From assembly GCA_963741925.1 (NCBI GenBank), contig CAVUJU010000005.1:2369447-2433446 (forward strand): a DNA stretch of 64,000 nt. Reading direction: 5' to 3'. Positions 635-30,639 of this stretch are shown one piece after another (within the stretch, counting starts at the first letter, position 1; each line of letters begins with the position of its first letter). The translations under genes and the position numbers were made by a program. The notes under the pieces were generated by a model, which did no database searches, was not told where the DNA came from, and was given only the letters and a program-made list of their open reading frames with translations. The stretch comes from an uncultured Acidobacteriota bacterium (GTDB lineage: Bacteria > Acidobacteriota > Thermoanaerobaculia > Multivoradales > DATKCC01).

Positions 635-1654
635 ATGACCCGAGCGATCGAGACCCGTATCCGCTTCCGTATCCTCACCCTCGCCCTCTCCGCCCTCCTG
701 GTCATGGCCCTGGCGGTGCCGCCGCCGGCCGCGGCGCAAGGCGCCTCCGCCCTCGCCCGGTCCGCGGCCGCCGACTACCTCCAGGCGGCGCGCTACCCCG
801 CGAGCTCCCGGCCCGTGCCGGCGGGGCGGCCGGACCCGATCCTCGCCGCGCGCACGCCGCAGGCCCACTCGCTGGCCGGTCCCGACGGCGCGCCGCCCCG
901 GCTCGAGGTCTGGCCCGCCCGGGTCGGCTTCGTGGCTCCGGAGCCTGTGGATCTCTACGCCACGCTCCGGGGAGCCGGCGGCACGGCGCTCGCCGGCGCG
1001 GTCGTCACCGGCCGGGTGCGCGACGAGTCGGGAGCCGAGATCGGCTCTGTGACCTACGCCGACGACGGCGTGGGTCCGGACCGGCGCGCCGGCGACGGCG
1101 TCTACTCGGCCCGCTTCGAGATGCCGGTGGGCGCCGCGCCGGCCCTGGCCGCCGCCGACCTGGTGGAGGTCCTCGCCACGCTGCCCGACGGCACGGAGCG
1201 GAAGGTGGCGGCGGGCTTCCTCTACAGCCGGCCCTGGGCGCGCCTGACCGGCCGCTACCGGGACTCGCTGGTGGACGGGAGCCTGGTGGTCGCGACCGAG
1301 GTGGCGGTGGAGAGGGCGGGGCGCTTCTACCTGGAGGGGACGCTGCACACCATGACCGGTGAGCCGGTGGCGTGGGCGCAGCAGGCAACGGAGCTCGCGC
1401 CCGGCCGGCATTGGGTCGACCTGTCGTTCTACGGCCTGGCCCTCCGAGACCGGGGCGTGGCCGGCCCGTACCGGCTGGGGAGCGTGACGCTGGCGACGAC
1501 CGGAGACATGCCCAACGCCCTGGGACCGGTGGTGGCGGACGCCTTCGTCACGCGGCCGGTCCGCCTCGACCGCCTGACGGCGGCGCCGTTCGGCGCGGCG
1601 GGGCTCGAGGAGGCGGCCCGGCGGCTGGCGGGGGAGGGGGGCGGAGAGCGCTGA
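635..1654 (+). CDS. secreted hypothetical protein (N-terminal signal peptide ILTLALSALLVMALAVPPPAAAQG)
   Basis: 339-aa ORF with signal peptide and correct GC3 bias; no family recognised. Confidence 0.5.
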   Translation: MTRAIETRIRFRILTLALSALLVMALAVPPPAAAQGASALARSAAADYLQAARYPASSRPVPAGRPDPILAARTPQAHSLAGPDGAPPRLEVWPARVGFVAPEPVDLYATLRGAGGTALAGAVVTGRVRDESGAEIGSVTYADDGVGPDRRAGDGVYSARFEMPVGAAPALAAADLVEVLATLPDGTERKVAAGFLYSRPWARLTGRYRDSLVDGSLVVATEVAVERAGRFYLEGTLHTMTGEPVAWAQQATELAPGRHWVDLSFYGLALRDRGVAGPYRLGSVTLATTGDMPNALGPVVADAFVTRPVRLDRLTAAPFGAAGLEEAARRLAGEGGGER

Positions 1655-1739
1655 GCCGCGCCCGGATCCGGGGTGAGTCCGGCTTCGGCGTCTCGGCCCC
1701 GGGGACGGGCCGTTGCCAGGGCCACCGTCGGGCCGGCCG

Positions 1740-1960
1740 AGACAGAGCTCGGCCGCTTCACCCGGGATTGCCGTCTCGGCGCGTTCCCGACGGATGAAGC
1801 GGCCGAGCTCCGCCTCGGCCGGGCGATCGGGGTGAGGAGCACCGAGCGCGCCGACCTGCCCGAGGTCCGCCTCGGCCGGTTCACCCGGGATTGCCGTCTC
1901 GGCGCGTTCCCGACGGATGAAGCGGCCGAGCTCCGCCTCGGCCGGGCGATCGGCGTGGTG
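1740..1960. repeat. REP-like hairpin doublet (2 direct copies, ~121 bp period), each carrying the palindromes CGGCCGAG-ACAGAG-CTCGGCCG and GGCCGAGCTCCGCCTCGGCC
   Basis: near-identical direct repeat 1746-1832 / 1867-1953 with perfect short inverted repeats; lies immediately beside the RAYT gene. Confidence 0.75.
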
Positions 1961-1976
1961 AGCACCGAGCGCCTCG

Positions 1977-2462
1977 CTACCCCGATCCCAGCCGTTCCGG
2001 CTTCACCACCGAGTACGGGTACTCCTCGCGGCTTCGCACCAGGCGGGCCCTGACCGGGTTGTCCAGGAGGTAAGCGACCACCGCCTCCAGGCTCTCCCGC
2101 CGGCGGACGACGTGGTCCCAGAACGAGCGCTGCCAGAGGGGCTCGCCGTATCCCGCTCTCCGGACCCGCCGGGTGGAGTAGGACTTGAAGGCCCGGACCG
2201 TCTCGATGACCCGGGCCGCGTCGTCCAGGAGCCAGTGGAGGTGGCCGGGCATGAGGCAGGCCGCGAGAGTGGCCGCGTGCTCCGCGAGGGCCTCGAAGAC
2301 CGGCAGCGCGACTCGGGGAAGGGTGAACGGCTCACCGTCACCCACGGTGCAGAGGGTGACGTGCACCGGCCGCTGGGGCGGATACAGGCCCGGCGGCAGC
2401 CGGTTGCCGCGGCTGCGGCGCCAGGTGCGGTACACGCTGCTGGCCGGGGGCGTGCGCGTCAT
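1977..2462 (-). CDS. rayT: REP-associated tyrosine transposase (RAYT; IS200/IS605-like TnpA_REP)
   Basis: HuH-like HLHWLL, and the C-terminal stretch GEPLWQRSFWDHVVRRRESLEAVVAYLLDNPVRARLV typical of RAYT/IS200 TnpA (WQxxF.DH...Y..NPV); flanked both sides by REP hairpins. Confidence 0.8.
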   Translation of the reverse strand: MTRTPPASSVYRTWRRSRGNRLPPGLYPPQRPVHVTLCTVGDGEPFTLPRVALPVFEALAEHAATLAACLMPGHLHWLLDDAARVIETVRAFKSYSTRRVRRAGYGEPLWQRSFWDHVVRRRESLEAVVAYLLDNPVRARLVRSREEYPYSVVKPERLGSG

Positions 2463-2524
2463 CTCATCCTTCAGGACGCGACGGAGCGGCGGAACCTTGC
2501 AGGTCGGCGGCGTTCGGTGCCCGC

Positions 2525-2745
2525 CGGAGGGCTCGGCCGGCCGAGACAGAGCTCGGCCGCTTCATGGGCCTGGTGAGGTGGCAACGGCGACGCCGGGTGA
2601 AGCGGCCGAGCTCTGCCTCGGCCGGGGCGGGTGGGGGAGACAGAGGTCGATCGCTTCATGGGCCTGGTGAGGTGGCAACGGCGACGCCGGGTGAAGCGGC
2701 CGAGCTCTGCCTCGGCCGGGGCGGGTGGGGGAGCGTCCGGAGGTC
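2525..2745. repeat. REP-like hairpin doublet (2 copies, ~110 bp) related to 1740-1960 (GGCCGAGCTCTGCCTCGGCC palindrome)
   Basis: direct repeat 2530-2640 / 2640-2745 with the same palindromic core; sits between the RAYT gene and the 3' end of the gvp operon. Confidence 0.75.
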
Positions 2746-2880
2746 GCCGGGGTCTCGGGCCGGCACCGAGCTCGCCGGGGCAGGGCGAAGCCGAGGCGCT
2801 CGCCGGCGTTTCACCGCCTCCGAGCGGCGCGCGCCGTGCGCAAGGGCGAAAGCCCCCGGCCCGGCGCGGCCCGGCCCGTG

Positions 2881-3640
2881 TCAGGTGAGCTTGCCGAGGG
2901 GGCCGAGGTCGAGGTTGAGGTCGCCGGGATCGAGGCCGAAGCGGGCGGCGATCTCGACCAGGGTCTCCTCGAGGCGCATCAGGGCGCGGCCGAGGCGCTC
3001 GACCTCCTCCGGCGTCAGCGTCTCCTCCTCCATGCGCCGGATCGCCTGGCGCTCCAGGAGCTGGCGGACGAAGTCCACGAGGGTCAGCACCAGGCGCGCC
3101 ACCGAGCGTTCCACGTCGTCCGGCTCCGGGTTCCAGCGGGCCACCTCGGTCGCCGGGTCGCGGCTCCGGGCCTCGAGCTCGGTGCGGAGCGCCTCGGCGT
3201 CGGCGGGCGCCACCCCGGCCCGCGGGGCGGGACCGGCGGGGGAAGGAGCGGAGGCGGTGGCCGGGGCGGGCGAGGCGACGGCCGGTGACGGCGACGGGGC
3301 GGGTTCTGCTCCCCCCGCGTCCGCCGCCTCGTCCGGCGCGCCCGGTCCGCCCGGGGCGACCGGTCCACCCGGGGCGGGCCCGGTCCCCTCGCCGTCCCGG
3401 CGGCGGAAGACCCGGTCCGCGGCGGCGAGCAGGGTCGAGAGCTTCAGGTAGATCAGGTCCACGTCGGCCAGGCCCAGGACCACGTCGCCGGTGAGCATGA
3501 CGCCGCGCTCGAGGAGCGAGTCCACCACCTCCACCAGGCGGGTATCGGCGTCCTCGAGGACGTGGGCCGTGGCCTCCCGCGTGTGGAGGGCGCCCGCGAC
3601 CCGCTCGCTGGTCCCGTTCGGGTCGCCCTCGCGGCTCACG
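2881..3640 (-). CDS. gvpJ/gvpK: gas vesicle protein GvpJ-like domain fused in frame to a GvpK-like domain (start GTG overlapping the upstream TGA)
   Basis: N-terminal LVEVVDSLLERGVMLTGDVVLGLADVDLIYLKLSTLLAAADRV (GvpA/J fold); Pro/Ala linker; C-terminal ARLVLTLVDFVRQLLERQAIRRMEE...LGRALMRLEETLVEI..LNLDLGPLGKL (GvpK signature); no stop between the two domains. Confidence 0.6.
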
Positions 3641-4403
3641 ACGCCTCCTCGCCGGCGAAGTTGTACGGCGGCCAGGGGCCGGTCAGGACCAGCTCGCACC
3701 CGGCGCCGTCGAGGGTGCGCGCCGCCGCCTCGGCCACCTCGCGAAAGGCGTCCTCGCCGTCGCGCGGCACCAGGAACGCGGCGTCGAGGAGCACGGCGCC
3801 GCCGGGCACAGGATCCTGGCGGCGGGACGCGACCGCCGCGGCGGCGAGCGCGGCGAACGCGCTCTCGACCGCCGCCGTCGTCTCGGCCGAGGGCGCCCGC
3901 CCGGCGTCGCGCAGGCGCTTCTTGCGCTCGAGGAAGGCCCGGCCGGAGGCGGCCGGCCGGGCGGCTCCGCCCGCCTCCGAGAGGACCCGGGCGCGCTCCG
4001 CGTCCCACCGCGCCCGCACCCCCCACTCCCGGCGACCGGTCACCCGGGCGAGAGCGCGGCGCACCTCGTGGCGGCGGGAGCGCACGTCCGCGAGCGCCCG
4101 CTCGTCGCTCGAGAAGAGGGTGAAGAGCTTCATCGGCAGGAGAGCGCCCGCGCCGGTGAAGTGCTCGACCAGCGCCTCGTGGGCGAGGGCCCGGTCGGAG
4201 ACCCAGGAGAGGTCCTGGAGGCGCGCCTCGATCTCGCCCGGGCCGTAGGTCTCGAGCGGGGCGCTCGCGGCGACCAGCCAGAGCCCGCCGCCCACCGCCA
4301 GGAGGCGGGGCGCCGCGGCGTCGGGAAGGCCCCGCGGGGCCCCTTCGAGCGCCGGCGGCTCGGGGTTCTCGACCAGGCAGTAGAGGTAGGTCGCCGTCGT
4401 CAT
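3636..4403 (-). CDS. gvpL: gas vesicle protein GvpF/GvpL family (copy 2)
   Basis: YLYCLV...PWPPYNF motifs; ATG overlaps the upstream stop (ATGA); the 845-aa ORF in the track is an over-extension. Confidence 0.8.
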   Translation of the reverse strand: MTTATYLYCLVENPEPPALEGAPRGLPDAAAPRLLAVGGGLWLVAASAPLETYGPGEIEARLQDLSWVSDRALAHEALVEHFTGAGALLPMKLFTLFSSDERALADVRSRRHEVRRALARVTGRREWGVRARWDAERARVLSEAGGAARPAASGRAFLERKKRLRDAGRAPSAETTAAVESAFAALAAAAVASRRQDPVPGGAVLLDAAFLVPRDGEDAFREVAEAAARTLDGAGCELVLTGPWPPYNFAGEEAS

Positions 4404-6417
4404 TCGAGGCTTGCCTCGGTCCACCGCCGGGCCCAGCGCTCGAGGGCCGCGGCGCCCCGGGGCGGGGGGTACTCGGCAGGGGCGCTCAGTATAGTGCAGC
4501 GGCAGCGCCGGCCGAGCTCCGCGAGGTGCCGGAGGGCGCCTCTCCGGGCCTCCCGGCAGCGGCGGCACGAGCCCTCCGGCAGGACGTTGGCCACCACCGC
4601 GGGAACGTGGACCTCCAGCGCCTCCAGGCGGGCGAGAAGGCGCTCGGTCTCGCGCCCGGGAAGCTCTCCCGCCCGGGTGACGGCCACGAACCGGCAGCGC
4701 GCGCGGTCGGCGAGCAGGGCCCGGAGGCGCTTGAGCGTGGCGGCGAGCTCCAGGAGGTCGCGCGCCAGGTCGCCCAGCCCGACCGCGTCCCGGTACTCGA
4801 GGAGCAGGGCGAGCAGGGCGTGGTCCCACTCGAGGGCGAGCGCGGGCATCTCGAGGAGGCGGAGGGCGTGGCCGGTGGGGGCGGTGTCCACCACCAGCAA
4901 CGGGCCGGCCGGACCGTCGCCGTCTCCGGGTCCGGCGCCGTCGAGGGCGTCGGTCAGCTCGCTCACCGCCACCAGCTCGTCGAGGCCGGGGGGCGTCGCC
5001 TCGAGGAGCCGCTCGAGGACCTCCCGCTCGAAGGGGGTGTCGATCCCCGAGCCGCCGCGGGCGAAGGCGCCGAACCCCCGCTCCAGGGCGTCGCGGTAGC
5101 GCTCCCGGCGGGCCGCGAAGCGGCCTCCGGCGTCGAGCTCCCGGGCGCGGAGCCCCTCCGGGCCGCCGGGCACCGGCCGCTCGGCGTCGCCCAGGTCCGC
5201 CTCGATCGCGTCGCCCAGGGAGTGGGCCGGGTCGGTGGAGAGGAGGACGACCCGCGAGGGCGGTGGCCCGTCGTTGCGGCCGGATCGCGCCAGGAGGAGG
5301 GCGAGGGCGGCGGCGCAGGTGGTCTTGCCGACGCCCCCTTTGCCGCCGACCAGGAGGAGCCGGAGGCCGGGAGGCGCGAGCTCGCTCAGCCAGGCGGGCG
5401 GACGTGCGGCCAGGGGCGGCGAGGGTGGCTGCGGCACCGGCTCCGGCGCCACCGGCTCGGGCGCCGGCAGGGGCCGGAGCGGAGCGCCGAGAGAGCCGCC
5501 GAGCGCGGCCAGGGCCGCCCGTCCCCGGGGCTCGGCGTCGAGCTCGGCCACGACGCGGAGGGGGAGCGTGGGGAAGGCCGCCCCGACCGTGGCCACGATC
5601 TCCGACTCGGCGCGGCGGCGGGCGGCGCACTCGGGGCAGGACGCGTCGGCGGGCAGGGGGTCCGGCGCCAGCCGGTTGACCACCAGCTCGTCGACGGTGA
5701 CGCCGGCGGCGGCGAGCGCGGCCAGGGCGTCGCGCGTCTCGGCGAGCGCCAGGGCCTCGGGCAGGAGGACCCAGACGAAGCGCGTCCGCTCCGGATCGCG
5801 GATCCGGCGGCCGATCTCTTGGGCCTCGGTCGCCACCGCCTCGGCGAGCTCGTCGGCCGCATCGGGCCGGAAGGCTCCGGTCAGGCGCCGGGCGAGCTCC
5901 TCGTGCCGGGCCGCGAAGGCCAGCAGCACGGCGGCGAAGCGCTCGAGGGCGGCGGGCATCTCGAGCAGGCGCAGGGTGTGGGCGGTAGGGGCGGTGTCGA
6001 CGATCACCCGGGTCGCGCCCGAGCCCTGGCCGAGGCGGGCGAGCTCGACCAGGCCCACCAGCTCGTCGACCCCCGGCACGGGCAGGTCGAGGAGCCGCTC
6101 GATCTCGGACGCGTCGAGGAGCGTGCCGCGCTCGGCGAGCGTCCGCAGGCCCGCGCGCCGCTCGCCGAGCCACCGGCGCCAGGCCGCTTCGGCGGCGAGC
6201 TCGGCGGCCAGGAGCCGGCCCCCGGCGCCGGGTGTGCCGGGAAGGAGCCGCGGCTCGGGGCCCAGGGGCACGTCCAGGGCGTCGCCCAGGGAGTGGGCGG
6301 GATCGGTCGAGATCACCAGCACGTCCTCGCCCGCTTCCGCGCGGGCGACGGCGGCCGCGGCGGCGAGGGTGGTCTTGCCGACGCCGCCCTTGCCGGCGAA
6401 GAAGGTATAGCGGATCA
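4400..6417 (-). CDS. ArsA/Get3-family ATPase, two tandem halves (anion-transporting / tail-anchored-protein ATPase-like)
   Basis: two P-loops, FFAGKGGVGKTT and LLLVGGKGGVGKTT; two DTAPTGH/DTAPTAH-TLRLLEMP signatures; STDPAHSLGDA x2. The first P-loop lies upstream of the first ATG and no canonical in-frame start occurs before the gvpG stop, so the start is uncertain (non-canonical CTG/ATC, or an indel). Confidence 0.7.
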
Positions 6418-6708
6418 GGGTCCCTCGTCGGGCCCGAAGCTCACCTCGGCGCCCACCACCTTCGAGGACATGGAGAGGCCCTGCCCCTCGCCCCGCTCCT
6501 CGCGGATCGAGCGCAGCCGGGCCAGGATCTCGCGCTCGGTCGCCGCGAACTCCTCGTCGCTGATCTCGCCGAGCTCGAGCCGCATCTGGGCCGCCAGGAG
6601 CTCCTGCTTCAAGTTGCCCTCGTCGTCCATCTCGGCCTCGACGGCCGCCGCCACCTTCTCGAGCACGAAGCGCAGCGGCGCGGTCAGCAGCCGGTCGATG
6701 ACGATCAC
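6415..6708 (-). CDS. gvpG: gas vesicle protein GvpG
   Basis: 97 aa, MIVIDRLLTAPLRFVLEKVAAAVEAEMDDE...ELGEISDEEFAATEREILARL matches the GvpG pattern; GTG start overlaps the gvpF stop (GTGA). Confidence 0.7.
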   Translation of the reverse strand: MIVIDRLLTAPLRFVLEKVAAAVEAEMDDEGNLKQELLAAQMRLELGEISDEEFAATEREILARLRSIREERGEGQGLSMSSKVVGAEVSFGPDEGP

Positions 6709-7571
6709 TCGTTGCCCACCGCGCGCTCGAGCTTGAGCCGGATGTTGACGAAGTTGTACGGCGGCCAGGGGCCGGTGTACTTGAAGCTCAGGTGGTCGTA
6801 GCGCCCGGCGACCTCCTTGACCCGGGCGTCGAAGTCCTCTTCGCGGTTGCGGCCGACCAGGAACGCGGCGTTGAGGATCATCTTCTCGCCGATCGGCTTG
6901 TTGGCGCGCGAGGCGACCGACACGTCGCCGAGGGAGATCATGATCTCGGAGGCCAGCTCCTCGGAGCGCTCCTGGAGCAGCGAGTCGACCAGGCGGCCGT
7001 ACTGCATCCTGGCGAAGTAGGTGGAGCCCCTCTGGGACTGGATCTCCTGGCGCAGGAGGCGGAGGTTCTCGTCCTCCTTCTCGATCTCCTGGATGATCAG
7101 ATCGGGCTCCCAGAGGACCTTGAGGCCGAACTCGAGCTTGCCCTGCATCTTCACCAACACGTCCTTGAAGGCGTCGTAGGCGCTGCGCAGGAGCTCGACG
7201 ATGTCCTCCTCGGTGCGGAAGACCGTGCCGAAGGACATGGGGATGACCGTGAACTGCTGCATCACGGTCTCGTTGACCCGCTCGTGGGCGAGCACGTTCT
7301 CCCGGGTCGGGTCGTAGACCTCGAGCGGGGTGTCGGAGGCGACCGCAGCGATGTCGCGGTAGCTCACGGTGCTCACCTCGGTGGGCTCGGAGCCGATCCC
7401 GGCGTGTCCGAAGCTGAGGTGCTCGTCGCTCTGGATGATGCAGTAGACGTACTTGCCGCTCGCCTGCGGGGCGGGACGCTCCCTCTCAGGCGAGGCTCCG
7501 GCCGCGGCGTCCGAGCGGCCGAGGGCCTCGGGCCGGCCGGTGGCCAGCGGCTCGTTCGACTGGTCGCTCAC
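6705..7571 (-). CDS. gvpF: gas vesicle protein GvpF/GvpL family (copy 1)
   Basis: KYVYCII...; C-terminal GPWPPYNF; GTG start overlaps the TGA of the upstream receiver gene. Confidence 0.85.
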   Translation of the reverse strand: MSDQSNEPLATGRPEALGRSDAAAGASPERERPAPQASGKYVYCIIQSDEHLSFGHAGIGSEPTEVSTVSYRDIAAVASDTPLEVYDPTRENVLAHERVNETVMQQFTVIPMSFGTVFRTEEDIVELLRSAYDAFKDVLVKMQGKLEFGLKVLWEPDLIIQEIEKEDENLRLLRQEIQSQRGSTYFARMQYGRLVDSLLQERSEELASEIMISLGDVSVASRANKPIGEKMILNAAFLVGRNREEDFDARVKEVAGRYDHLSFKYTGPWPPYNFVNIRLKLERAVGNE

Positions 7572-7981
7572 GATTCTCCTTTCGGCTCGTCGGCGGGTGC
7601 CGAGGACCTGCCGAGCTGGCGCCGTACCTCGCGTTCCAGCTCCTTGGGCACGACCGGCTTGGTGACCACCTCGTCACAGCCCGCGGCCAGGGCGCGGTCC
7701 CGCTCGCGCGACAGGGCGTGGGCCGTCAGGGCCACGATCTTGATGTGGCGGGTGCGCTCTTCGCTGCGCAGGAGGCGGGTCGCCTCCCAGCCGTCGACCT
7801 CGGGCAGCGACAGGTCCATCAGGATCACGTCGGGCAGGAGGTCGCGGGCCTTGGTCAGCGCCTCGGCGCCGTCCGCGGCCGTCGCCACGTCGTAGCCGCG
7901 GAAGGTCAGGTACTCGGCGCACAGCTCGCGCCCCGCGGCGAAGTCGTCGACCACCAGGACGAGCGGCTTCTCGGCGCTCAC
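7568..7981 (-). CDS. single-domain response regulator (CheY-like receiver)
   Basis: LVLVVDDF...D...LMDLSLPEVDGWE...KIVALTAHA receiver motifs; GTG start overlaps the HK stop (GTGA). Confidence 0.8.
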   Translation of the reverse strand: MSAEKPLVLVVDDFAAGRELCAEYLTFRGYDVATAADGAEALTKARDLLPDVILMDLSLPEVDGWEATRLLRSEERTRHIKIVALTAHALSRERDRALAAGCDEVVTKPVVPKELEREVRRQLGRSSAPADEPKGES

Positions 7982-10131
7982 GCGACCCCCAGGCGGCGGG
8001 GCAGCAAGAGGGTGAAGGTGGAGCCGATCCCCACGGTGCTCTCCAGAGTGATGTCTCCTCCGAGGAGGGTGGCGAGACGGCGGCAGATCGAGAGTCCCAG
8101 GCCGGTGCCGGTGTGGCCGGGCGAGTAGAAGCTCTCGCTCTGTCCGAACGCCTCGAAGATGCTCTTCTGGTTGGCCTCCGAGATCCCGATGCCGGTGTCG
8201 GTCACGGCGATCGCCACCCGGTCGGTCTCCGCATCGTACCCGGTTTCGATCGTCACCCTGCCCTCGGGCGTGAACTTCAAGGCGTTCGAGAGCAGGTTGA
8301 GGAGGATCTGTTTGACCTTCTGGCGGTCGCTGATCAGCGCCGGCATGCCCTCGCCGCCGTCGAACTCGACCCGGAGCCCGCTCGAGTGGATCAGCGACTC
8401 GGCCTCGGACCGGACTTCCCGGAAGAGCTCCTCGAGCCGGAACCGCTCGGTCCGGATCGGCATCTTGCCGGACTCGATCCGGGTCAGGTCGAGGAGGTCG
8501 TTGATGATGGTCAGCAGGTGATTGGCGTTCGAGTCGACCCGCTGGAGCTTCTCCTGCTGCGGCTCGGTGAGGTCGCCGGAGATCCCCTCGAGGAGGATCG
8601 AGGTGTAGCCGACGATGGCGTGGAGCGGGGTGCGCAGCTCGTGGGAGACGTTGGCCAGGAACTGCGACTTCATGGCCGAGGCGTGCTCGAGCTGCAGGGC
8701 CTGGCGGCGCAGCAGCTCGTTCTGGTCCGCGAGCTCGCCGGTGGCCTCGCGGATCTTCTCCTGGAGCTCCTCGGAGTGGCGCTTGACCTGCTCGTAGAGG
8801 CGCGCCTTCTCGACCGCCTCGCTCTGGTCGTGGAGGATGGTCACGACCGCCGTGTCTTGCCCCGGCTTCGAGAGGGTCTTGGCGGAGATCGCCTCCATGG
8901 GGATGGCGTCGCCGGTCCGGGGGTCGAGGAGCGAGAGCTCCTTGCGCCAGCGCAGCGAGCGCCCGGCATAGATGTTCGAGGCGAACGACGTGAACACCGC
9001 GTCGTTGGCCCGCAGGCGGCGCTCGGCCTCGAAGTCGGAGCCGTCCGCGGAGGCCGTGAACAGGCGCTCGGCGGGCGGGTTCATGAGCACGATGTTGCCC
9101 ACCGGGTCGGTCACCAGGATCGGATCGAGCACCGAGTTCAGGATCAGGTCGAGGCGGTCCCGCTCGGCGCGGGTCTCGGCCTCCGCCGCCCGCAGCCGCT
9201 GGTAGTTCTCCTCGATCTCCTCGGTGGCCCGGGAGAGGTCGGTGACGTCGCGCAGGACCGAGACCATGCCGGTCTCGGAGTGGCTGATGGGGTAGGGCGT
9301 CGTCAGCAGCTCGAAGACCAGGTCCTGGCCGTCCACCGGGTCGACCAGCAGGAGCTCGCGGCGGCTCGGCCCGCCCTCCTCGGCGTTGGTGAACAGCGAG
9401 GCGGAGAAGAGCATGTTGTTGAGCGCCACCGCCCGGCGCCGGCCCTCGCCCACCTCGTCGCCGGCCGAAAGCAGGTTGTCGGCTCCTCGGTTGGCGATCA
9501 GGATGCGCCCCTCGCCGTCGGTCAGGAGGATCGGGTCGGTGACCGCCTCGATCACCCCGCGCAACCACTCGACCTCTCGCCGGTGCCGCCGGTCGTCCTC
9601 GCGCGCCCGCCGGTACCAGAGCGAGCTGAGCCGTACGCCCAGGGCGCCGGCGGCCCAGCAGAGCATCTCGGGGTCGGGCAGCGAGCTGCCGCCGGCGGCC
9701 AGGAGCAGACCGAAGCCCGGGCCGCTCGGGTCCGTCCCGTCGTTCAGGGCCGCGGCGTAGAAGGGCGCCTCGCCCAGGGGGGTGGCCGGCGGGCGCCGCG
9801 GGCTTCCCGGCTCGGGCCGGCCGAAGGGCACCGGCTCCCGGCTCTCGAGGGCGACGACCAGCGGGTGGGTGCGCTCGGCGAGCGCCACGCGGAGGCCCTC
9901 GACCTCGCCCTCCTCCATGCCCAGGCCCACCAGCCCCTCCAGGGTCTCGCCGGCGAGGTCGACGACCGCGCACAGGCCGGCCGAGACCCCGCCGTGGCGG
10001 CTGAGCCACGCGAGGGTCCGGTCCGCGCAACGGGCCGGGTCGGACTCACCCATGAGCTCCTCGGTCAACGCGAGACGGACCCGGGCGTCGTCGGCGGGCC
10101 TTGCTTCGGGCTGGATTCGGGCGACCTCCAT
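7978..10131 (-). CDS. cytoplasmic GAF/PAS sensor histidine kinase
   Basis: H-box SHELRTPLHAIVGY; N/G boxes LLNLLSNALKFT, GTGLGLSI; upstream PAS/GAF-like segments; 717 aa. Confidence 0.85.
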   Translation of the reverse strand: MEVARIQPEARPADDARVRLALTEELMGESDPARCADRTLAWLSRHGGVSAGLCAVVDLAGETLEGLVGLGMEEGEVEGLRVALAERTHPLVVALESREPVPFGRPEPGSPRRPPATPLGEAPFYAAALNDGTDPSGPGFGLLLAAGGSSLPDPEMLCWAAGALGVRLSSLWYRRAREDDRRHRREVEWLRGVIEAVTDPILLTDGEGRILIANRGADNLLSAGDEVGEGRRRAVALNNMLFSASLFTNAEEGGPSRRELLLVDPVDGQDLVFELLTTPYPISHSETGMVSVLRDVTDLSRATEEIEENYQRLRAAEAETRAERDRLDLILNSVLDPILVTDPVGNIVLMNPPAERLFTASADGSDFEAERRLRANDAVFTSFASNIYAGRSLRWRKELSLLDPRTGDAIPMEAISAKTLSKPGQDTAVVTILHDQSEAVEKARLYEQVKRHSEELQEKIREATGELADQNELLRRQALQLEHASAMKSQFLANVSHELRTPLHAIVGYTSILLEGISGDLTEPQQEKLQRVDSNANHLLTIINDLLDLTRIESGKMPIRTERFRLEELFREVRSEAESLIHSSGLRVEFDGGEGMPALISDRQKVKQILLNLLSNALKFTPEGRVTIETGYDAETDRVAIAVTDTGIGISEANQKSIFEAFGQSESFYSPGHTGTGLGLSICRRLATLLGGDITLESTVGIGSTFTLLLPRRLGVA

Positions 10132-10161
10132 GCTCTGATCGGGTACGACGGGAAACGGTTC

Positions 10162-10494
10162 CTACCGGCGTCCACCCCCGCCGGAACCGCCGGCCTTCGC
10201 CTTGTCCCGTTTCTCGGCGGCGAGCTCGGCGCGGAGCGCGGCGTTCTCCGCTTGCAGCGCTTCCCTCGGTACGGTCTCGATGGCCGGTCGGGACACGGTC
10301 GGCACCTGGCCGACGGCCTCCGAGTACTTCAGATAGGTGTCGATCGAGGCGACCACCACCCGCGCCTCGACGGTGAGCAGGTCGATCCCCACCAGGGAGA
10401 CCCGGACCCACGCATCGATCACGATGCCCTTGTCGAGCACGCGATCGAGCACGTCGATGAGGCTGGTTCCACCCGAAGCTCTTTCAACCGGCAT
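10162..10494 (-). CDS. gvpA: gas vesicle structural protein GvpA
   Basis: [51 protein letters not shown] is the canonical GvpA core; start at the internal ATG (MPVERASGG) with an upstream AGGAGA Shine-Dalgarno. Confidence 0.9.
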
Positions 10495-10495
10495 C

Positions 10496-10894
10496 CTAGT
10501 CTCCTGTCGTTGCCTTTCCGCCCTGTTTGGCCCGGCGTCCGCTCCGTTTCGCCCGAGAGGCCGCGGTGCTTCCGGCACCTTCGCCGGCCGTCGCTTCGAG
10601 CGTGGCGAGGCGGCGCTCGAGGAGGAGCACCTGCTCGCGCAGCTCGCGGTTCTCCGAGGAGAGCCTGCGGGCGGCCATCGAGAGGTTCGGGTCGTCGCGC
10701 CACCAGTCGAGCCCGACCTCCTCCGCCTTGTCGATGGAGCAGACGAGGAGCCGGATCCGGATGGTCAACAGCTCCACCTCGGCGAGCGAGACCCGGATGT
10801 CGCCGGCGATCACCAGCCCCTTGTCGAGCACCCGGTCGAGGACGTCGACCAGGCCGCTCGTCTGGCGATAGGTGGGTTGTATCGCTCCAGCCAT
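10496..10894 (-). CDS. gvpJ: GvpA/GvpJ-family gas vesicle protein (second paralogue)
   Basis: [42 protein letters not shown] core plus a charged C-terminal tail. Confidence 0.8.
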
Positions 10895-11148
10895 CTCTCG
10901 GGACCTCGCTCGCCGGCACCATCTGGCTTCGTGTGGCCGGGATTGTGTCAGACATGCCGATCCCCGGGCCACCGATGATCGACGGGGCAGGGCCTGACTC
11001 GGCGAGTTGCTGAGGGCGCTGCACGAATCGTTCCAGCGCCCGGCGCGGCGAAATGCCCGGAATCCGGCCTCCCCACGGGCCTGGAGGCGTTCCGAAGCGG
11101 CGCTCGGACGCCGCCGCCCGGCCGGAAATGGCAGAGCCTTTGTAGGAA
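10895..11148. promoter_or_regulatory. divergent intergenic region; probable promoter for the gvp operon (minus strand) and for the GT39 gene (plus strand)
   Basis: only sizeable non-coding gap upstream of the overlap-coupled gvp gene chain. Confidence 0.35.
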
Positions 11149-12819
11149 TTGCAGGCCACCGGCGGCGCCACGGCGAGCGAGCGGCGGCTGCTAGCATCCG
11201 CTCGCTTCCGCATGCCGCCCTCTCCCGATCGCTCGCCGCCCGCTCCGCGCGACGCCCGGGGCGCCGCCGCCCTGTTCTCGGCCCTCCTGGCCGGGACGCT
11301 CCTGGTCAAGGCGCTGCTCGCCGCCGCCCTGCCCGTGCTGGGCGACGAAGCCTACGTCTTCCTCTGGGGACGCAACCTCTCCCTCGGCTACTACGACCAT
11401 CCGCCGCTCGCCGGCTGGATGGCGCACCTGCTCTTCCTCTTCGGCGACTCCCTGCCGGTGCTGCGCCTGCCTTCGATCCTCCTCTCCGCCGTCATCGCCC
11501 TCGGCATGGTCGCCCTGCTGCGGCCCTACGGCGAGACGGAGGCGTACCTCGGCGCGAGCCTCTTCCTGCTCGCGCCGGTGAACGTCCTGGGGGTGCTCAC
11601 CCTCACCGACACGCCCCTCATCCTCTTCTCGTTCCTCTCGGGCGCCGCCCTGGTCCACGCCCGGCGGCGCGGCGACCATCTCGGGTGGTACGCCCTCTCC
11701 GGGGTCTTCCTCGGGCTCGCGTTCCTCTCGAAGTACCTGGCCGTCCTGCTCGCCCTGGGCTACCTCGCCTGGTTCCTGGCGGCCCTCGCCGGGAGCGCGG
11801 CGCCGCGCCGGCGCCGGCTGGCGGCGGGCGTCGCCCTGCTGGCAGCCGGCAGCCTGCCGTTCGTCGCCTTCAACCTCTGGTGGAACGCCGGCCACTGCTG
11901 GACGAACGTGATCTTCAACCTCTACTCGCGCCACGTCGGCGAGGGGAGGAACTACTCGGTGCCGCGGAACCTGCTCTTCTACCTCGGCACGCACCTCTAC
12001 ATGGCGACCCCGCCGGTGCTCGTCGTGCTCGCCCGCCGCCGCCGCCGGCTCCGGGAGGTCCTCGCCGATCCGGTCCTGCGCCCGGCGGCGTTCCTCTTCG
12101 CCGTTCCCATGGCGGCCTTCCTGGTGCTGGCCCTGACCGCCGTCTTCGGGGCCTACTGGGTCCTCGCCTTCTACCCGTTCTTCTTCCTCCTCGTGCCGCG
12201 GGTGCTCGAACGCCGCGAGCTCGCCACGGCCTGCCGCTTCATGGCGGTCTTCACGGTGCTCCAGCTGGTGGCGGTGGGGGCGGTCCTCGCCCGGCCCCTC
12301 GAGCGCTTGCGCTCCCTCGGCTTCTACGACTCTCTGGTGACCATGGAGGCCCCGGACGAGCTCCTCCGCGACCTCGCCCCCGACCGCGGCGGCGCCCACC
12401 TGGCGGCGCCGGGCTACACCCTGGCGTCGATCCTTTCCTATCGGCTGGGCGAGACGGTGAGCGTGTTCGGCCCCGGCTCGCACTACGCCCGGGAAGACGA
12501 CCTCCTGACCGACTGGCGCACCCTGGACGGGCGAGCGGTGCTGGTGGTCTCGAAGCGGCCCTTCGAGCTCGCCCGCTACCGGCCCTACTTCCGCTCCCTC
12601 GAGCTCGGCGCCTTCGAGCTTCACGGCGCGACGATCCACCTGCTGCGGGGCGAGGGGTTCGACTACCGGGCCTACCGGGCGGGGGTCCTGCGGCCGATCC
12701 TCGAGCGCTACTACCGGCTCCCCGCCTGGCTGCCCACGACCGGCTGCTACTTCTGCGCGAGGTACTTCCCCGGCCCGGACTGCCCGTCCGGCGAGGCCTC
12801 CCGGCGGGCGACGAAGTAG
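11149..12819 (+). CDS. GT39/GT83-family membrane glycosyltransferase (ArnT/PMT-like)
   Basis: DEAYVFLWGRNLSLGYYDHPPLAGWM motif, many transmembrane segments; start may be the internal ATG at 11212. Confidence 0.75.
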   Translation: MQATGGATASERRLLASARFRMPPSPDRSPPAPRDARGAAALFSALLAGTLLVKALLAAALPVLGDEAYVFLWGRNLSLGYYDHPPLAGWMAHLLFLFGDSLPVLRLPSILLSAVIALGMVALLRPYGETEAYLGASLFLLAPVNVLGVLTLTDTPLILFSFLSGAALVHARRRGDHLGWYALSGVFLGLAFLSKYLAVLLALGYLAWFLAALAGSAAPRRRRLAAGVALLAAGSLPFVAFNLWWNAGHCWTNVIFNLYSRHVGEGRNYSVPRNLLFYLGTHLYMATPPVLVVLARRRRRLREVLADPVLRPAAFLFAVPMAAFLVLALTAVFGAYWVLAFYPFFFLLVPRVLERRELATACRFMAVFTVLQLVAVGAVLARPLERLRSLGFYDSLVTMEAPDELLRDLAPDRGGAHLAAPGYTLASILSYRLGETVSVFGPGSHYAREDDLLTDWRTLDGRAVLVVSKRPFELARYRPYFRSLELGAFELHGATIHLLRGEGFDYRAYRAGVLRPILERYYRLPAWLPTTGCYFCARYFPGPDCPSGEASRRATK

Positions 12820-27580: not shown

Positions 27581-27691
27581 GGGTCGTGGGGAGCGTGGCG
27601 GAGGATCACTCCGGGGTGCGGAGTGTAGCAGCGGCGGGTGTTCCATTTACAGCGCGCGTGCAGGAAGTTCCCGCCCGGCCCGGACGGTAGG

Positions 27692-28681
27692 ATGGCCGCC
27701 ATGGACTACGTGAACCTCGGAAAGACCGGGCTCAAGGTCTCGCGCCTGTGCCTGGGATGCATGAGCTTCGGCGATCCGGGCTGGCGCGAGTGGGTGTTGT
27801 CCGAGCCCGAGGCGCGGCCGTTCTTCGAGCGGGCCCTCGAGCACGGGATCAACTTCTTCGACACCGCGGACATGTACTCGCTCGGGGCGAGCGAGGAGGT
27901 GACCGGCCGGGCCCTCGGCGAGCTGGCGCGGCGCGACGAGGTGGTGATCGCCACCAAGGTCTTCTTCCCGGTGAAGAAACACCCCAACGGCGGCGGGCTC
28001 TCGCGCAAGCACATCCTGGATGCGATCGACGGCTCGCTGCGGCGCCTCGGGACGGAGTACGTGGACCTCTACCAGATCCACCGCTGGGACGACGAGACGC
28101 CCATCGACGAGACCCTGGAGGCGCTCCACGACATGGTGCGCGCGGGCAAGGCGCGCTACGTCGGCGCCTCGAGCATGTACGCCTGGCAGTTCGCGAGCGC
28201 CCTCTACCGCGCCGACCTCCACGGCTGGACCCGCTTCGTCTCGATGCAGAACCACTACAACCTGGTCTACCGCGAGGAGGAGCGGGAGATGATCCCGCTG
28301 TGCCGCGCCGAGGGCATCGGCGTGATCCCCTGGAGCCCGATCGCCCGGGGCCTGCTGGCCGGCAACCGGGGGCGCGACGACGAGGGACGGACGAAGCGCG
28401 CGAAGGAGGACGACTACTCGCACCGCATGTACACGCGCGAGAGCGACTTTCAGGTGGTCGACCGGACGGCGGAGGTGGCGGGGGAGCTGGGGGTGTCGCC
28501 GGCGCAGGTGGCGATTGCCTGGCTCCTCCACCGGCCCGGGGTCACGGCGCCGATCGTCGGGGCGACGAAGCTCGAGCACCTGGAGGAGGCGGTGGCGGCG
28601 GTGGGGGTCGAGCTCGGCGACGACCAGATGGCGCGGCTCGAGGAGCCGTACGTGCCGCACCCGGTGCTCGGGCACTCCTGA
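27692..28681 (+). CDS. aldo/keto reductase
   Basis: GINFFDTADMY...; AKR catalytic tetrad context. Confidence 0.85.
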   Translation: MAAMDYVNLGKTGLKVSRLCLGCMSFGDPGWREWVLSEPEARPFFERALEHGINFFDTADMYSLGASEEVTGRALGELARRDEVVIATKVFFPVKKHPNGGGLSRKHILDAIDGSLRRLGTEYVDLYQIHRWDDETPIDETLEALHDMVRAGKARYVGASSMYAWQFASALYRADLHGWTRFVSMQNHYNLVYREEEREMIPLCRAEGIGVIPWSPIARGLLAGNRGRDDEGRTKRAKEDDYSHRMYTRESDFQVVDRTAEVAGELGVSPAQVAIAWLLHRPGVTAPIVGATKLEHLEEAVAAVGVELGDDQMARLEEPYVPHPVLGHS

Positions 28682-28889: not shown

Positions 28890-28965
28890 GGGCGGCGGCC
28901 CGGGCGGCCGAGCCACAGCTCGGCTGCTTCATAGGACTCGAACGCGTGAAGCGGCCGACCTCTGC
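28890..28965. repeat. solo REP-like double hairpin between convergent genes (possible terminator)
   Basis: GCCGAGC-CAC-AGCTCGGC and GGCCGAC-CTCTGC-GTCGGCC palindromes resembling the RAYT-flanking REPs. Confidence 0.6.
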
Positions 28966-29030
28966 GTCGGCCGACCGGGCCGGAGGCCCGGCCCCGCCGA
29001 GGTCTCGCAGCCGGGGCGGCAGCCGGGGCG

Positions 29031-29083: not shown

Positions 29084-30598
29084 CTACTGGCTCCTCGCGG
29101 TGCGGATCTCGAGGCCTCGCGTTCGCGGCTCGATCTGGAGGTGCGCCAGCTCGTCCTCGGAGAGCACCCGGTCGAGGGCGATGTCCAGGACGTACTGGTG
29201 GCGCAGCTCCTGGTCGATCTCGGCGTAGGCCCGCGCCAGGTCGTCCCGGCTCTGGATCCGGAGGAAGCGCCCACCGGTCTCCCGGGCGACGCTCGCCAGC
29301 CGCAGCGGCGGCTCGAAGTTCGTCCGCCCGGTCGCCAGGCCGCCGATGCCGAGGACGTAGACCGGCACGCCGGCCCGCCGCGCGTAGAGCGAGGCCTGGC
29401 CGGCGTCGAGGTGGCTGCTCGAGTCCTCGCCGTCGGTGAGCACCACCAGGGCCCGCCGGCCGACCTGGCGCTCGAGCGCGAGGGTGGCGAAGACGATCGA
29501 GTCCCAGAGCGCCGTCTCACCGCCGGCCTCCAGCTCGTCGAAGGCGGCCGCGAGGTCGGCGGGCTCGCCGGTGAGGTCGTGGACCAGCCGGGGCGCGGTG
29601 TCGACGTCGACCAGGAGGGCTCGGTCGCCGGGGATCAGGGTCGCTTCGAGGAACTGCTCCGCGGCGTCCTTCGTCTCGCCCAGTACCGGCGTCATGCTGA
29701 CCGAGGAGTCGACCAGCAGGCCGAGGACCAGGGGGACCTGGCGGGCCTTGCGGAAGCGTTCGATGGCGACCTCTCGGCCGCCCAGACGGACCGCGAAGTC
29801 TTCGGGCCCGAGACTCGCGACGGGGCGCCCGCGCCGGTCGGTCGCGACCGCGAAGAGCTCGACCAGGTTGACGTCCACGTGGCCGGCGGCGCCCTCGCCG
29901 AGCAGGGGGCGAGCGTCTTCGAGGCTGCTCCCGTCGGCGAGGTAGGCGACCGCCCGCAGGTAGTCCCCGGCTCCGGGGTCGGGGGTCGGCACCCGGGCCC
30001 GGAAGGGCGGCCGGTCGAGGCGGGCGACCCGCTCCTGGTTGCGGAAGAGCTCGACGTGGTCGAGGGTCTCGCCCGGAGGCAGGGCGACCGCCATCTCGAC
30101 CTCCACCGCGCCCGTTGCGGGCCGCCCGCTCACCCGTTCGATGGTGACGCCGGAGGCGCTCTGCCGCGGGTCGAGGGTGAGGGAGTCCTCGCCGAGCCGC
30201 CGGCCGTCGGCGCCGTAAGCGACCGCCTGGAGCGTCCGCGGTGCGTCGCCCCCGGGCAGATCGAGGCGCACCGAGAAGGGCCAGTAGCCGTCGGCCGCCG
30301 CCTCGCGCCCGTCGACGAAGAACACCACCCGGTCGATGTCGGAGGAGGTCGAGACGGTGTCGATCCGGACCCGCCCCGCGACCCGCGGCGGGGGAACGAG
30401 GAGGAGCGGCGGGCCGGCGGGAGCGCCGACCGGATCGCGGCTCCGGTCGGCGGCGGCGCCCGGCCGAGCCGCCGGCGCCTGGGCGCGGCTCTCGCGAGGC
30501 CAGGGCCCGAGGGCGGCCAGAAGCGCCAGTGCCAGGACGGCCGCGAAAGCCGGCGACCGCCGCCGGACGAACCGGGCGTCGATCGGCGTCGAGCGCAT
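29084..30598 (-). CDS. secreted von Willebrand factor A (VWA) domain protein
   Basis: signal peptide; VLGLLVDSSVSM...TALWDSI (MIDAS DxSxS...T...D). Confidence 0.75.
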   Translation of the reverse strand: MRSTPIDARFVRRRSPAFAAVLALALLAALGPWPRESRAQAPAARPGAAADRSRDPVGAPAGPPLLLVPPPRVAGRVRIDTVSTSSDIDRVVFFVDGREAAADGYWPFSVRLDLPGGDAPRTLQAVAYGADGRRLGEDSLTLDPRQSASGVTIERVSGRPATGAVEVEMAVALPPGETLDHVELFRNQERVARLDRPPFRARVPTPDPGAGDYLRAVAYLADGSSLEDARPLLGEGAAGHVDVNLVELFAVATDRRGRPVASLGPEDFAVRLGGREVAIERFRKARQVPLVLGLLVDSSVSMTPVLGETKDAAEQFLEATLIPGDRALLVDVDTAPRLVHDLTGEPADLAAAFDELEAGGETALWDSIVFATLALERQVGRRALVVLTDGEDSSSHLDAGQASLYARRAGVPVYVLGIGGLATGRTNFEPPLRLASVARETGGRFLRIQSRDDLARAYAEIDQELRHQYVLDIALDRVLSEDELAHLQIEPRTRGLEIRTARSQ

Positions 30599-30639
30599 GA
30601 TGCTGGTGAGAGTCTACCCGATGCCTGGACTCCCCTGCC

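Follow-up and report, generated by a model that had tools for sequence, protein, structure and literature searches.

Based on the analysis of a 64,000-nt stretch of DNA, it was concluded with high confidence that the locus described here is a REPtron, that is, a probably single-copy and vertically inherited gene of a REP-associated tyrosine transposase (RAYT, TnpA_REP) together with its cognate repetitive extragenic palindromes (REPs), which are arranged as REPINs. The whole stretch, referred to as the window, had a GC content of 72% and came from an uncultured Acidobacteriota bacterium (Thermoanaerobaculia; Multivoradales; DATKCC01; assembly GCA_963741925.1, contig CAVUJU010000005.1, positions 2,369,447-2,433,446). 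The term REPtron is used after Ton-Hoang 2012, the term REPIN after Bertels & Rainey 2011 and the GTAG REP superfamily after Di Nocera 2013. A RAYT gene flanked by REP hairpin doublets had been proposed in a preliminary description of the same DNA, and this was borne out by the protein profile and fold and by the REP arrays. The RAYT/REPIN system of this Thermoanaerobaculia-like acidobacterium departs from the canonical form by its TGAAG tag and its short perfect stem. It is an ordinary REPtron, and no new class of system is opened by it.

The HuH region and the WQRSFWDH and YLLDNPV motifs that had been read from a 161-aa open reading frame (ORF) were all seen in the RAYT gene (Table 1), the full motifs being PGHLHWLL, WQRSFWDH and YLLDNPVRA. 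The NCBIfam model of REP-associated tyrosine transposases (REP_Tyr_transpos, NF047646), on which the proposed identity depended, was reached with 80.2 bits at a cut-off of 80 (E 1.3e-22, residues 61-151); the HUH, Tyr and Asn residues were kept, and the predicted fold was like that of TnpA_REP. When the protein was aligned by phmmer with the E. coli TnpA_REP (4ER8), H74 and H76 of the HUH motif (H74-L75-H76) corresponded to H59 and H61, Y131 to the catalytic Y115 and N135 to N119. The E. coli residues W94, Q95, E100, H101 and R104, which contact GTAG (PMC6006769), were matched by W110, Q111, D116, H117 and R120, respectively. In an alignment of 13 homologs, H74/H76, W110/Q111, W115/D116/H117, R120, Y131 and N135/P136 were invariant or nearly so. 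The AlphaFold model of the RAYT (pLDDT 85.2, pTM 0.80) was disordered at residues 1-17 only, and its best fold match in the PDB was 4er8_A (E 4e-6, TM 0.60 over 143 columns), followed by the IS200, ISDra2 and IS608 transposases. The protein family, the catalytic residues and the fold were established directly, as was the REP structure with the covariation of its stem.

A basic N-terminal motif YRTWRRSRGNRLP, located at RAYT residues 8-16 (window 2415-2441), was strongly conserved across the clade. This motif, which may serve as an additional arm for DNA binding, lay outside the region matched by NCBIfam and Pfam, and the pLDDT was below 50 for most of it.

The REP is 28 nt long and has the form TGAAG-CGGCCGAG-N6-CTCGGCCG-G, the full 28-mer being TGAAGCGGCCGAGCTCYGCCTCGGCCGG. 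The hairpin pattern CGGCCGAG-N6-CTCGGCCG was matched 10 times in the window at up to 2 mismatches (0.9 expected), a number reached by none of 100 shuffles, and 7 matches to the 28-mer were obtained when up to 3 mismatches were allowed (0 expected). A covariance model was built from 18 REP variants, and the window was searched with the filters off. This gave 8 strong matches of 37.7-46.6 bits, and the next best match scored 18.8 bits. Two types of REP motif had been distinguished previously; these were found to be a single REP in opposite orientations, because their loops, ACAGAG and CTCTGT, are reverse complements of each other. The description of the REP as perfectly palindromic was correct for the 8-bp stem but not for the rest of the element.

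The pairing of the stem was examined in an alignment of 18 sequences, where standard pairs occupied 98.6% of the cells and 12 cells were changed on both sides. The covariation score of the stem was reached by 0 of 500 shuffles, and all slid registers fell to 13-46% paired. The two upper pairs of the stem varied with compensation (AG/CT, AC/GT, GG/CC and GC/GC, i.e., A-T to G-C and G-C to C-G), and the loop length was 4-6 nt across the REPs of homologous loci. The TGAAG tag and the stem base CGGCCG were kept across the RAYT homolog loci, the upper stem and the loop being the parts that diverged. Among 53 distinct copies from 8 genomes, the foot was TGAAG in 52 and CGAAG in the remaining one, and the base preceding the T of TGAAG was A, C, G or T.

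Six intact and two degraded REPs were located within 1733-2719. They were paired head to head in four doublets (REPINs), of which two preceded and two followed the RAYT gene (Table 1). Tandem doublets on both sides had been noted in the preliminary description; one arm of one doublet was degenerate on each side. The doublets are doubled on each side because of tandem duplications, one of 123 nt on the 3' side of the gene (1748-1849 / 1871-1972, 96% identical) and one of 94 nt on the 5' side (2525-2618 / 2619-2712, 88% identical). The REP(-) at 1856-1883 was chimeric. Here, where the two 123-nt duplicates meet, a REP(-) tail, TTCACCCGGG, was joined to the 3' half of a REP(+), CCGAGGTCCGCCTCGGCCGG, giving the tag TGAAC and a stem cut to 6 bp. 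This junction may have come from transposase action or from slippage. For the decayed left arm of REPIN 4, an identity of 77% was reported over the 30-nt span 2629-2658.

The two arms of the imperfect inverted repeat that brackets the gene were 79% complementary, and the tail motif found in them recurred after dispersed REPs in a related metagenome-assembled genome (MAG). Each doublet beside the gene folded into a single long hairpin, with -44 to -50 kcal/mol and z scores of -7 to -10. The values were -47 to -50 kcal/mol for REPIN 1 (z -7.1 and -7.8) and -44 kcal/mol for REPIN 3 (z -7.6 and -9.7). For the doublets including a dispersed one, minimum free energies ranged from -31 to -50 kcal/mol and z scores from -4.5 to -9.7, at spacers of 34, 33 and 15 nt. 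The array upstream of RAYT in the ortholog locus, termed L001, consisted of a unit present four times, at distances of 170-356 nt, and of shorter 93-nt repeats. The repeat arrays beside the RAYT gene are clearly dynamic.

Table 1. Features of the REPtron, its neighboring genes and the dispersed REPIN (window coordinates).
Feature	Position	Strand	Details
RAYT (TnpA_REP) gene	1977..2462	-	161 aa, ATG start, intact ORF
Shine-Dalgarno-like purine-rich stretch GAAGGATGAG	2463..2472	-	directly upstream of the RAYT ATG, read from sequence
REPIN 1, 3' side of RAYT	1733..1822	.	REP(-) 1733-1760, 34-nt spacer, REP(+) 1795-1822; TGAAG tags face each other
REPIN 2, inner, 3' side of RAYT	1856..1945	.	left arm 1856-1883 degraded; right arm REP(+) 1918-1945 intact
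REPIN 3, inner, 5' side of RAYT	2537..2625	.	REP(-) 2537-2564, 33-nt spacer, REP(+) 2598-2625
REPIN 4, outer, 5' side of RAYT	2631..2719	.	left arm 2631-2658 decayed, hairpin lost; right arm REP(+) 2692-2719 intact
Left arm of 57-nt imperfect inverted repeat bracketing RAYT	1917..1973	+	REP and ~28-nt tail GGCGATCGGCGTGGTGAGCACCGAGCGCC
Right arm of 57-nt imperfect inverted repeat bracketing RAYT	2509..2565	+	innermost 5'-side REP and tail
Dispersed REPIN without transposase	28904..28974	.	REP(-) 28904-28931, 15-nt spacer, REP(+) 28947-28974
GvpJ/K fusion gene, last of gvp cluster	2881-3630	-	stop at 2881, co-oriented with RAYT
DUF4785-domain gene	635-1654	+	convergent with RAYT

Two other identities of the arrays were considered and rejected. 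A CRISPR array does not fit, since successive 28-nt repeats point in opposite directions and the 33-34-nt spacers are not unique, the one at 1761-1794 recurring at 1884-1917 and the one at 2565-2597 at 2659-2691. A plain minisatellite was also rejected: the tandem duplications are real, but they are built from REPIN units.

Several long ORFs ran through the REP arrays, at 1673-2053(+), 1429-1965(-) and 2471-2659(-) of the window, and were derived from the repeats, as was the ORF at 9728-9901 of L001 that is called as a 57-aa 'gene'. All of these ORFs are almost certainly spurious, and flagging them as such is of use for annotation.

The REP was also present away from the transposase gene, as the proposed identity required: a REPIN lay 26 kb away in the window, and the 28-mer occurred on numerous contigs in related MAGs. 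The dispersed REPIN (Table 1) was situated in the gap between the convergent genes 27629-28681(+) and 29084-30613(-), whose frames were assigned by the GC content of third codon positions (GC3). Its two REPs had covariance scores of 44.4 and 37.7 bits and 3-4 mismatches, and the z score of the doublet was -4.5. Further genomes were scanned with the pattern GAAGCGGCCGASN6STCGGCC in one genome per species, and the per-genome REP counts are lower bounds. At least 13 pattern loci on at least 10 contigs were recorded in the Acidobacteriota MAG MFD01721.bin.1.17, to which L001 belongs, at least 7 in the Thermoanaerobaculia MAG D5M12_1 and at least 3 in the MAG SRP214966_co3_65. The matches listed did not include the source genome of the window. 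The full 28-mer with 0-2 mismatches was present in all three. The other genomes among the matches listed mostly had one pattern match each, and one had two; the single matches were attributed to chance, tens of chance matches being estimated and the full 28-mer being checked only in the three MAGs. In these three related MAGs, 27 of the 33 REP copies were outside high-GC3 ORFs, and the other 6 were at the 5' edge of stop-to-stop ORFs.

Homologs of the RAYT with their flanks were found at four loci, L001, L119, L121 and L120, with protein identities of 81%, 65%, 52% and 51%, respectively. Each locus had the same layout as the window, namely TGAAG followed by a hairpin, the gene, and a hairpin followed by CTTCA. 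The distant homologs (51-65% identity) were found in unrelated gene contexts. The RAYT and the REP diverge together, as would be expected if each RAYT recognizes its own REP. The close clade was small and comprised 4 clusters at 50% identity with E<=1e-30, and a search of 1.84 billion representatives gave 469 clusters at E<=1e-10 and 5,579 at E<=0.001.

The gene order gvp cluster - REPINs - RAYT - REPINs - DUF4785-domain gene was common to the window and L001, the two being 84% identical in nucleotides over 9.2 kb. The 81% amino acid identity of the two RAYTs was in line with that of the full-length neighboring genes (72-88%), and the dN/dS ratio of 0.26 for the RAYT compared with 0.26-0.40 for the neighbors. 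The GC3 of the RAYT gene was 0.90, like that of the host genes. One copy of the gene was found in the 64-kb window, and it was single in all the homolog loci examined. A purine-rich stretch CAAGGATGAG occupied the position directly before the RAYT ATG in L001 that is held by the Shine-Dalgarno-like stretch in the window. Judged by synteny, purifying selection and host-like codon composition, the RAYT behaves as a resident chromosomal gene. The linkage of REP and RAYT in five independent lineages, the extragenic dispersal of the REP, the synteny and the purifying selection were directly established.

A semi-conserved tail of ~28 nt, GSCGAWCGGTG-N6-8-CACCGAGCG, was observed after many REPs, among them those followed by window positions 1823-1853, 1946-1973 and 2509-2536 and those of the loci L001, L011, L085 and others. 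This tail can form a second small hairpin (CGGTG/CACCG). Other REPs had a G-rich tail GGGYGGGYGGGGG instead; these were copies in L119, in the MAG D5M12_1 and in the window (tails at 2626-2640 and 2720-2734). There appear to be two REP subfamilies distinguished by the tail, both represented in the REPtron of the window.

A group II intron was located within a REPIN next to the RAYT gene in L001 (10661-12509 of that locus, MAG MFD01721.bin.1.17) and was not present in the window. It contained an ORF with RT and GIIM domains at 10753-11976(-), and its domains V/VI were matched by Rfam RF00029 at 10661-10741(-) with 57 bits. On the plus strand the site read ..GGCGGATGA|intron|AAGCGGCCGACCTCTGCGTCGGCCGG, the TGAAG tag being split by the intron; on its own strand the intron started 3 nt after the REP hairpin. 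Class C introns home to sites after terminator-like stem-loops, and the placement of the L001 intron resembles theirs. The REP hairpin appears to serve as the landing site of a group II intron in the sister genome.

It was proposed that the RAYT would act as an HUH single-tyrosine endonuclease/transposase of single-stranded DNA. The enzyme would bind the 8-bp REP hairpin in single-stranded DNA and read the conserved tag 5' of the stem foot, here TGAAG in place of GT[AG]G. The DNA would be cut and rejoined through a covalent link to Y131, with H74 and H76 holding a metal ion. The units copied, moved or rearranged would be the REPs and REPINs rather than the RAYT gene itself. This mechanism was drawn by analogy from the E. 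coli TnpA_REP and IS608 TnpA, and the catalysis, the reading of the tag and a present-day mobility are proposed from these two systems as they are summarised in PMC6006769. Any benefit to the host from the RAYT/REP system is likewise putative.

Several observations weigh against the interpretation of the locus as a REPtron. The NF047646 score was marginal, and the match was limited to residues 61-151 of the RAYT. The Pfam Y1_Tnp model scored 22 bits, 1 bit under its cut-off of 23; such a score is expected because this profile covers class 2 proteins only in part (Quentin et al., PMC6006769). Directly before the HUH motif the RAYT has G73 (window codon 2243-2245), a position held by D in 11 of the 12 homologs and by Ala in one, and D or N occupies it in the consensus of every TnpA-Y1 subclass (PMC6006769 Table 1). 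The dispersed REPIN was the only one in the ~62 kb of the window outside the locus. Finally, the canonical GT[AG]G tag, which defines canonical REPs (PMC3733652; PMC6006769), was absent from the 53 distinct copies in 8 genomes, the GAAG of the TGAAG foot differing from GTAG by one base.

The first alternative to be weighed was that the hairpin doublets mainly regulate the neighboring operons and that their link to the transposase is secondary. They would terminate or attenuate transcription, stabilise mRNA 3' ends or insulate the gvp operon, the RAYT and the convergent DUF4785 gene from one another; a terminator or insulator had been suggested in the preliminary description. The position of the element between the 3' end of the gvp operon and a neighboring gene, as given in the preliminary description, was confirmed, with the GvpJ/K fusion gene on one side and the DUF4785-domain gene on the other. 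Two REPINs lie between the gvpK stop and the RAYT start and two between the convergent 3' ends of the RAYT and DUF4785 genes, and this location is conserved in L001. The structures of -44 to -50 kcal/mol are very stable, and in E. coli, REPs/BIMEs are able to attenuate transcription and to protect the mRNA upstream of them by stabilisation (PMC6006769, PMC3733652). However, the hairpins were not followed by a T run: a scan of 1500-3100 gave 0 terminator-like sites, and no promoter was found in the same interval, both of which are weak evidence at 72% GC. No Rfam family was matched in the window. The REP flanks RAYT homologs in unrelated contexts and is dispersed elsewhere, and therefore the sequence follows the transposase and not the gvp operon. 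A regulatory role as the primary explanation would also leave the conserved tag and the RAYT linkage unexplained, and we considered it unlikely. By analogy with E. coli, it is plausible that the REPINs of the REPtron moonlight as an mRNA 3'-end barrier or attenuator.

According to the second alternative, the locus is a relic in which the RAYT is inactive or weakened by G73, the repeats change only by replication slippage and recombination, and no mobility is driven by the transposase in this genome. The replacement of D by G73 could weaken the activity. Of the 8 flanking REP arms, two are degraded, simple tandem duplications of 123 nt and 94 nt account for the doubled doublets, and the rest of the window has a single dispersed REPIN with 3-4 mismatches. 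These points are opposed by the intact ORF with all of its catalytic and DNA-contact residues, by the dN/dS of 0.26 against the ortholog and by the conserved Shine-Dalgarno-like sequence. In addition, the homolog with Ala at position 73, P0012, is full-length, and therefore D is not strictly required within the clade. On balance, a relic was judged somewhat less probable still than a primarily regulatory role.

An autonomous insertion sequence (IS) of the IS200/IS605 family that moves as a unit and is bounded left and right by the hairpins was considered very improbable: the HUH-Y1 fold is related to the IS200, IS608 and ISDra2 transposases and 57-nt imperfect inverted repeats with hairpins bracket the gene, but the IS200 model NF033573 scored 12.2 bits against a cut-off of 55 where the RAYT model was reached, the tyrosine motif is Y-x3-NP and not the Y-x3-Q of IS200 (PMC6006769 Table 1), no tnpB gene is present at the locus, the RAYT is single-copy in the window and the homolog loci examined, a genome ~16% different at the nucleotide level has the gene at the same site of the chromosome, hairpins occur elsewhere without the gene, and the GC3 is host-like.

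The REPtron was further compared with known systems. It shares with the REPtron of E. coli K-12 (tnpA_REP/yafM, REP-BIME, 4ER8) the HUH, Y and N catalytic set, a monomer-type fold that gave the best PDB match, a gene flanked by inverted REP pairs, a REP consisting of a short hairpin whose 5' tag at the stem foot is conserved, and the conserved tag-contact residues W, Q, H and R (PMC6006769). In contrast, the identity to the E. coli protein was 17% over the structural alignment, with D in place of E100; the tag is TGAAG and not GTAG; the stem is a perfect, GC-rich one of 8 bp with a 4-6-nt loop and not a long bulged one; and the host is of an acidobacterial lineage with 72% GC.

The nearest resemblance was to the REPIN-RAYT systems of Pseudomonas and Xanthomonads (Bertels Group 3, equal to Quentin subclass 2.5). 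These likewise have proteins of ~150-160 aa with a HuH motif of the DH[LF]H type, which is found in the clade of the window RAYT, where most members have DHLH and lengths are ~157-161 aa. Other shared traits were the change of E100 to D, the motif Y-[ILV]-x-x-NP and short REP hairpins paired as REPINs (PMC6006769 Table 1), as well as synteny and, probably, a single copy and vertical inheritance. The window system differs from this group in that its tag is not GT[AG]G, its host belongs to another phylum and its clade is very small. The motifs suggest that subclass 2.5 / Group 3 is what the clade most resembles and that the two may be sister groups; the comparison was made by motifs only.

The TIRYT genes and TIRtrons of Acidobacteria (Di Nocera 2013) and the class 3 TnpA-Y1 systems, whose foot is CnGA (Quentin 2018), also have tyrosine transposase genes in Acidobacteria with flanking inverted repeats or atypical hairpins, and these flanking elements can be repeated in the genome; the RAYT of the window is similarly bracketed by 57-nt inverted repeats. 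However, class 3 proteins have NHVH, Y-x4-Q and ~178 aa, while the RAYT and its clade have (D/G)HLH, Y-x3-NP and, in the window, 161 aa. The foot is TGAAG rather than CnGA, and the repeats are true short REP hairpins. Membership in class 3 / TIRYT was rejected on account of the wrong Y and HuH signatures. With IS200, IS608 and ISDra2 the system shares the HUH-Y1 fold and the recognition of single-stranded DNA hairpins, whereas its gene is not a mobile unit, has another Y motif, lacks TnpB and does not reach the IS200 model.

A literature search returned no paper combining RAYT with Thermoanaerobaculia, and the REP core sequence occurred in no relevant paper, the matches being primers and similar. 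It is possible, though we rate it a little below an even chance, that the RAYTs described here form a previously undescribed small clade of Acidobacteriota/Thermoanaerobaculia with an invariant TGAAG foot in place of GT[AG]G, despite the presence of the GTAG-contact residues in the protein. If this is true, the TGAAG clade would be a naturally occurring variant in specificity, from which one could learn how a guide or tag sequence is read by HUH-Y1 enzymes. The TGAAG tag provides a simple handle for testing tag recognition by experiment.

To our knowledge, apart from some studies in Cyanobacteria and Bacteroidetes, the characterisation of REP/RAYT systems has been almost wholly confined to Proteobacteria. 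The locus provides a clean example from an acidobacterial lineage of high GC content that is represented by MAGs only, and five related loci can be compared. In this comparison the tag and the stem base were fixed while the upper stem covaried, and the transposase and the repeat co-diverged. The behavior of the RAYT as a resident gene fits the picture of a 'domesticated transposase' and extends it to another phylum.

The gas-vesicle cluster next to the REPtron extended over 2881-12000(-) and included a GvpJ/A-GvpK fusion, two GvpF/L genes and an ArsA-like ATPase with tandem domains (640 aa). The cluster began with two GvpA genes, followed in order by a histidine kinase, a response regulator, GvpF/L, GvpG, the ArsA-like ATPase, the second GvpF/L and the GvpJ-GvpK fusion. 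The pair of a histidine kinase and a response regulator inside the gvp operon was recognized by homology with L001.

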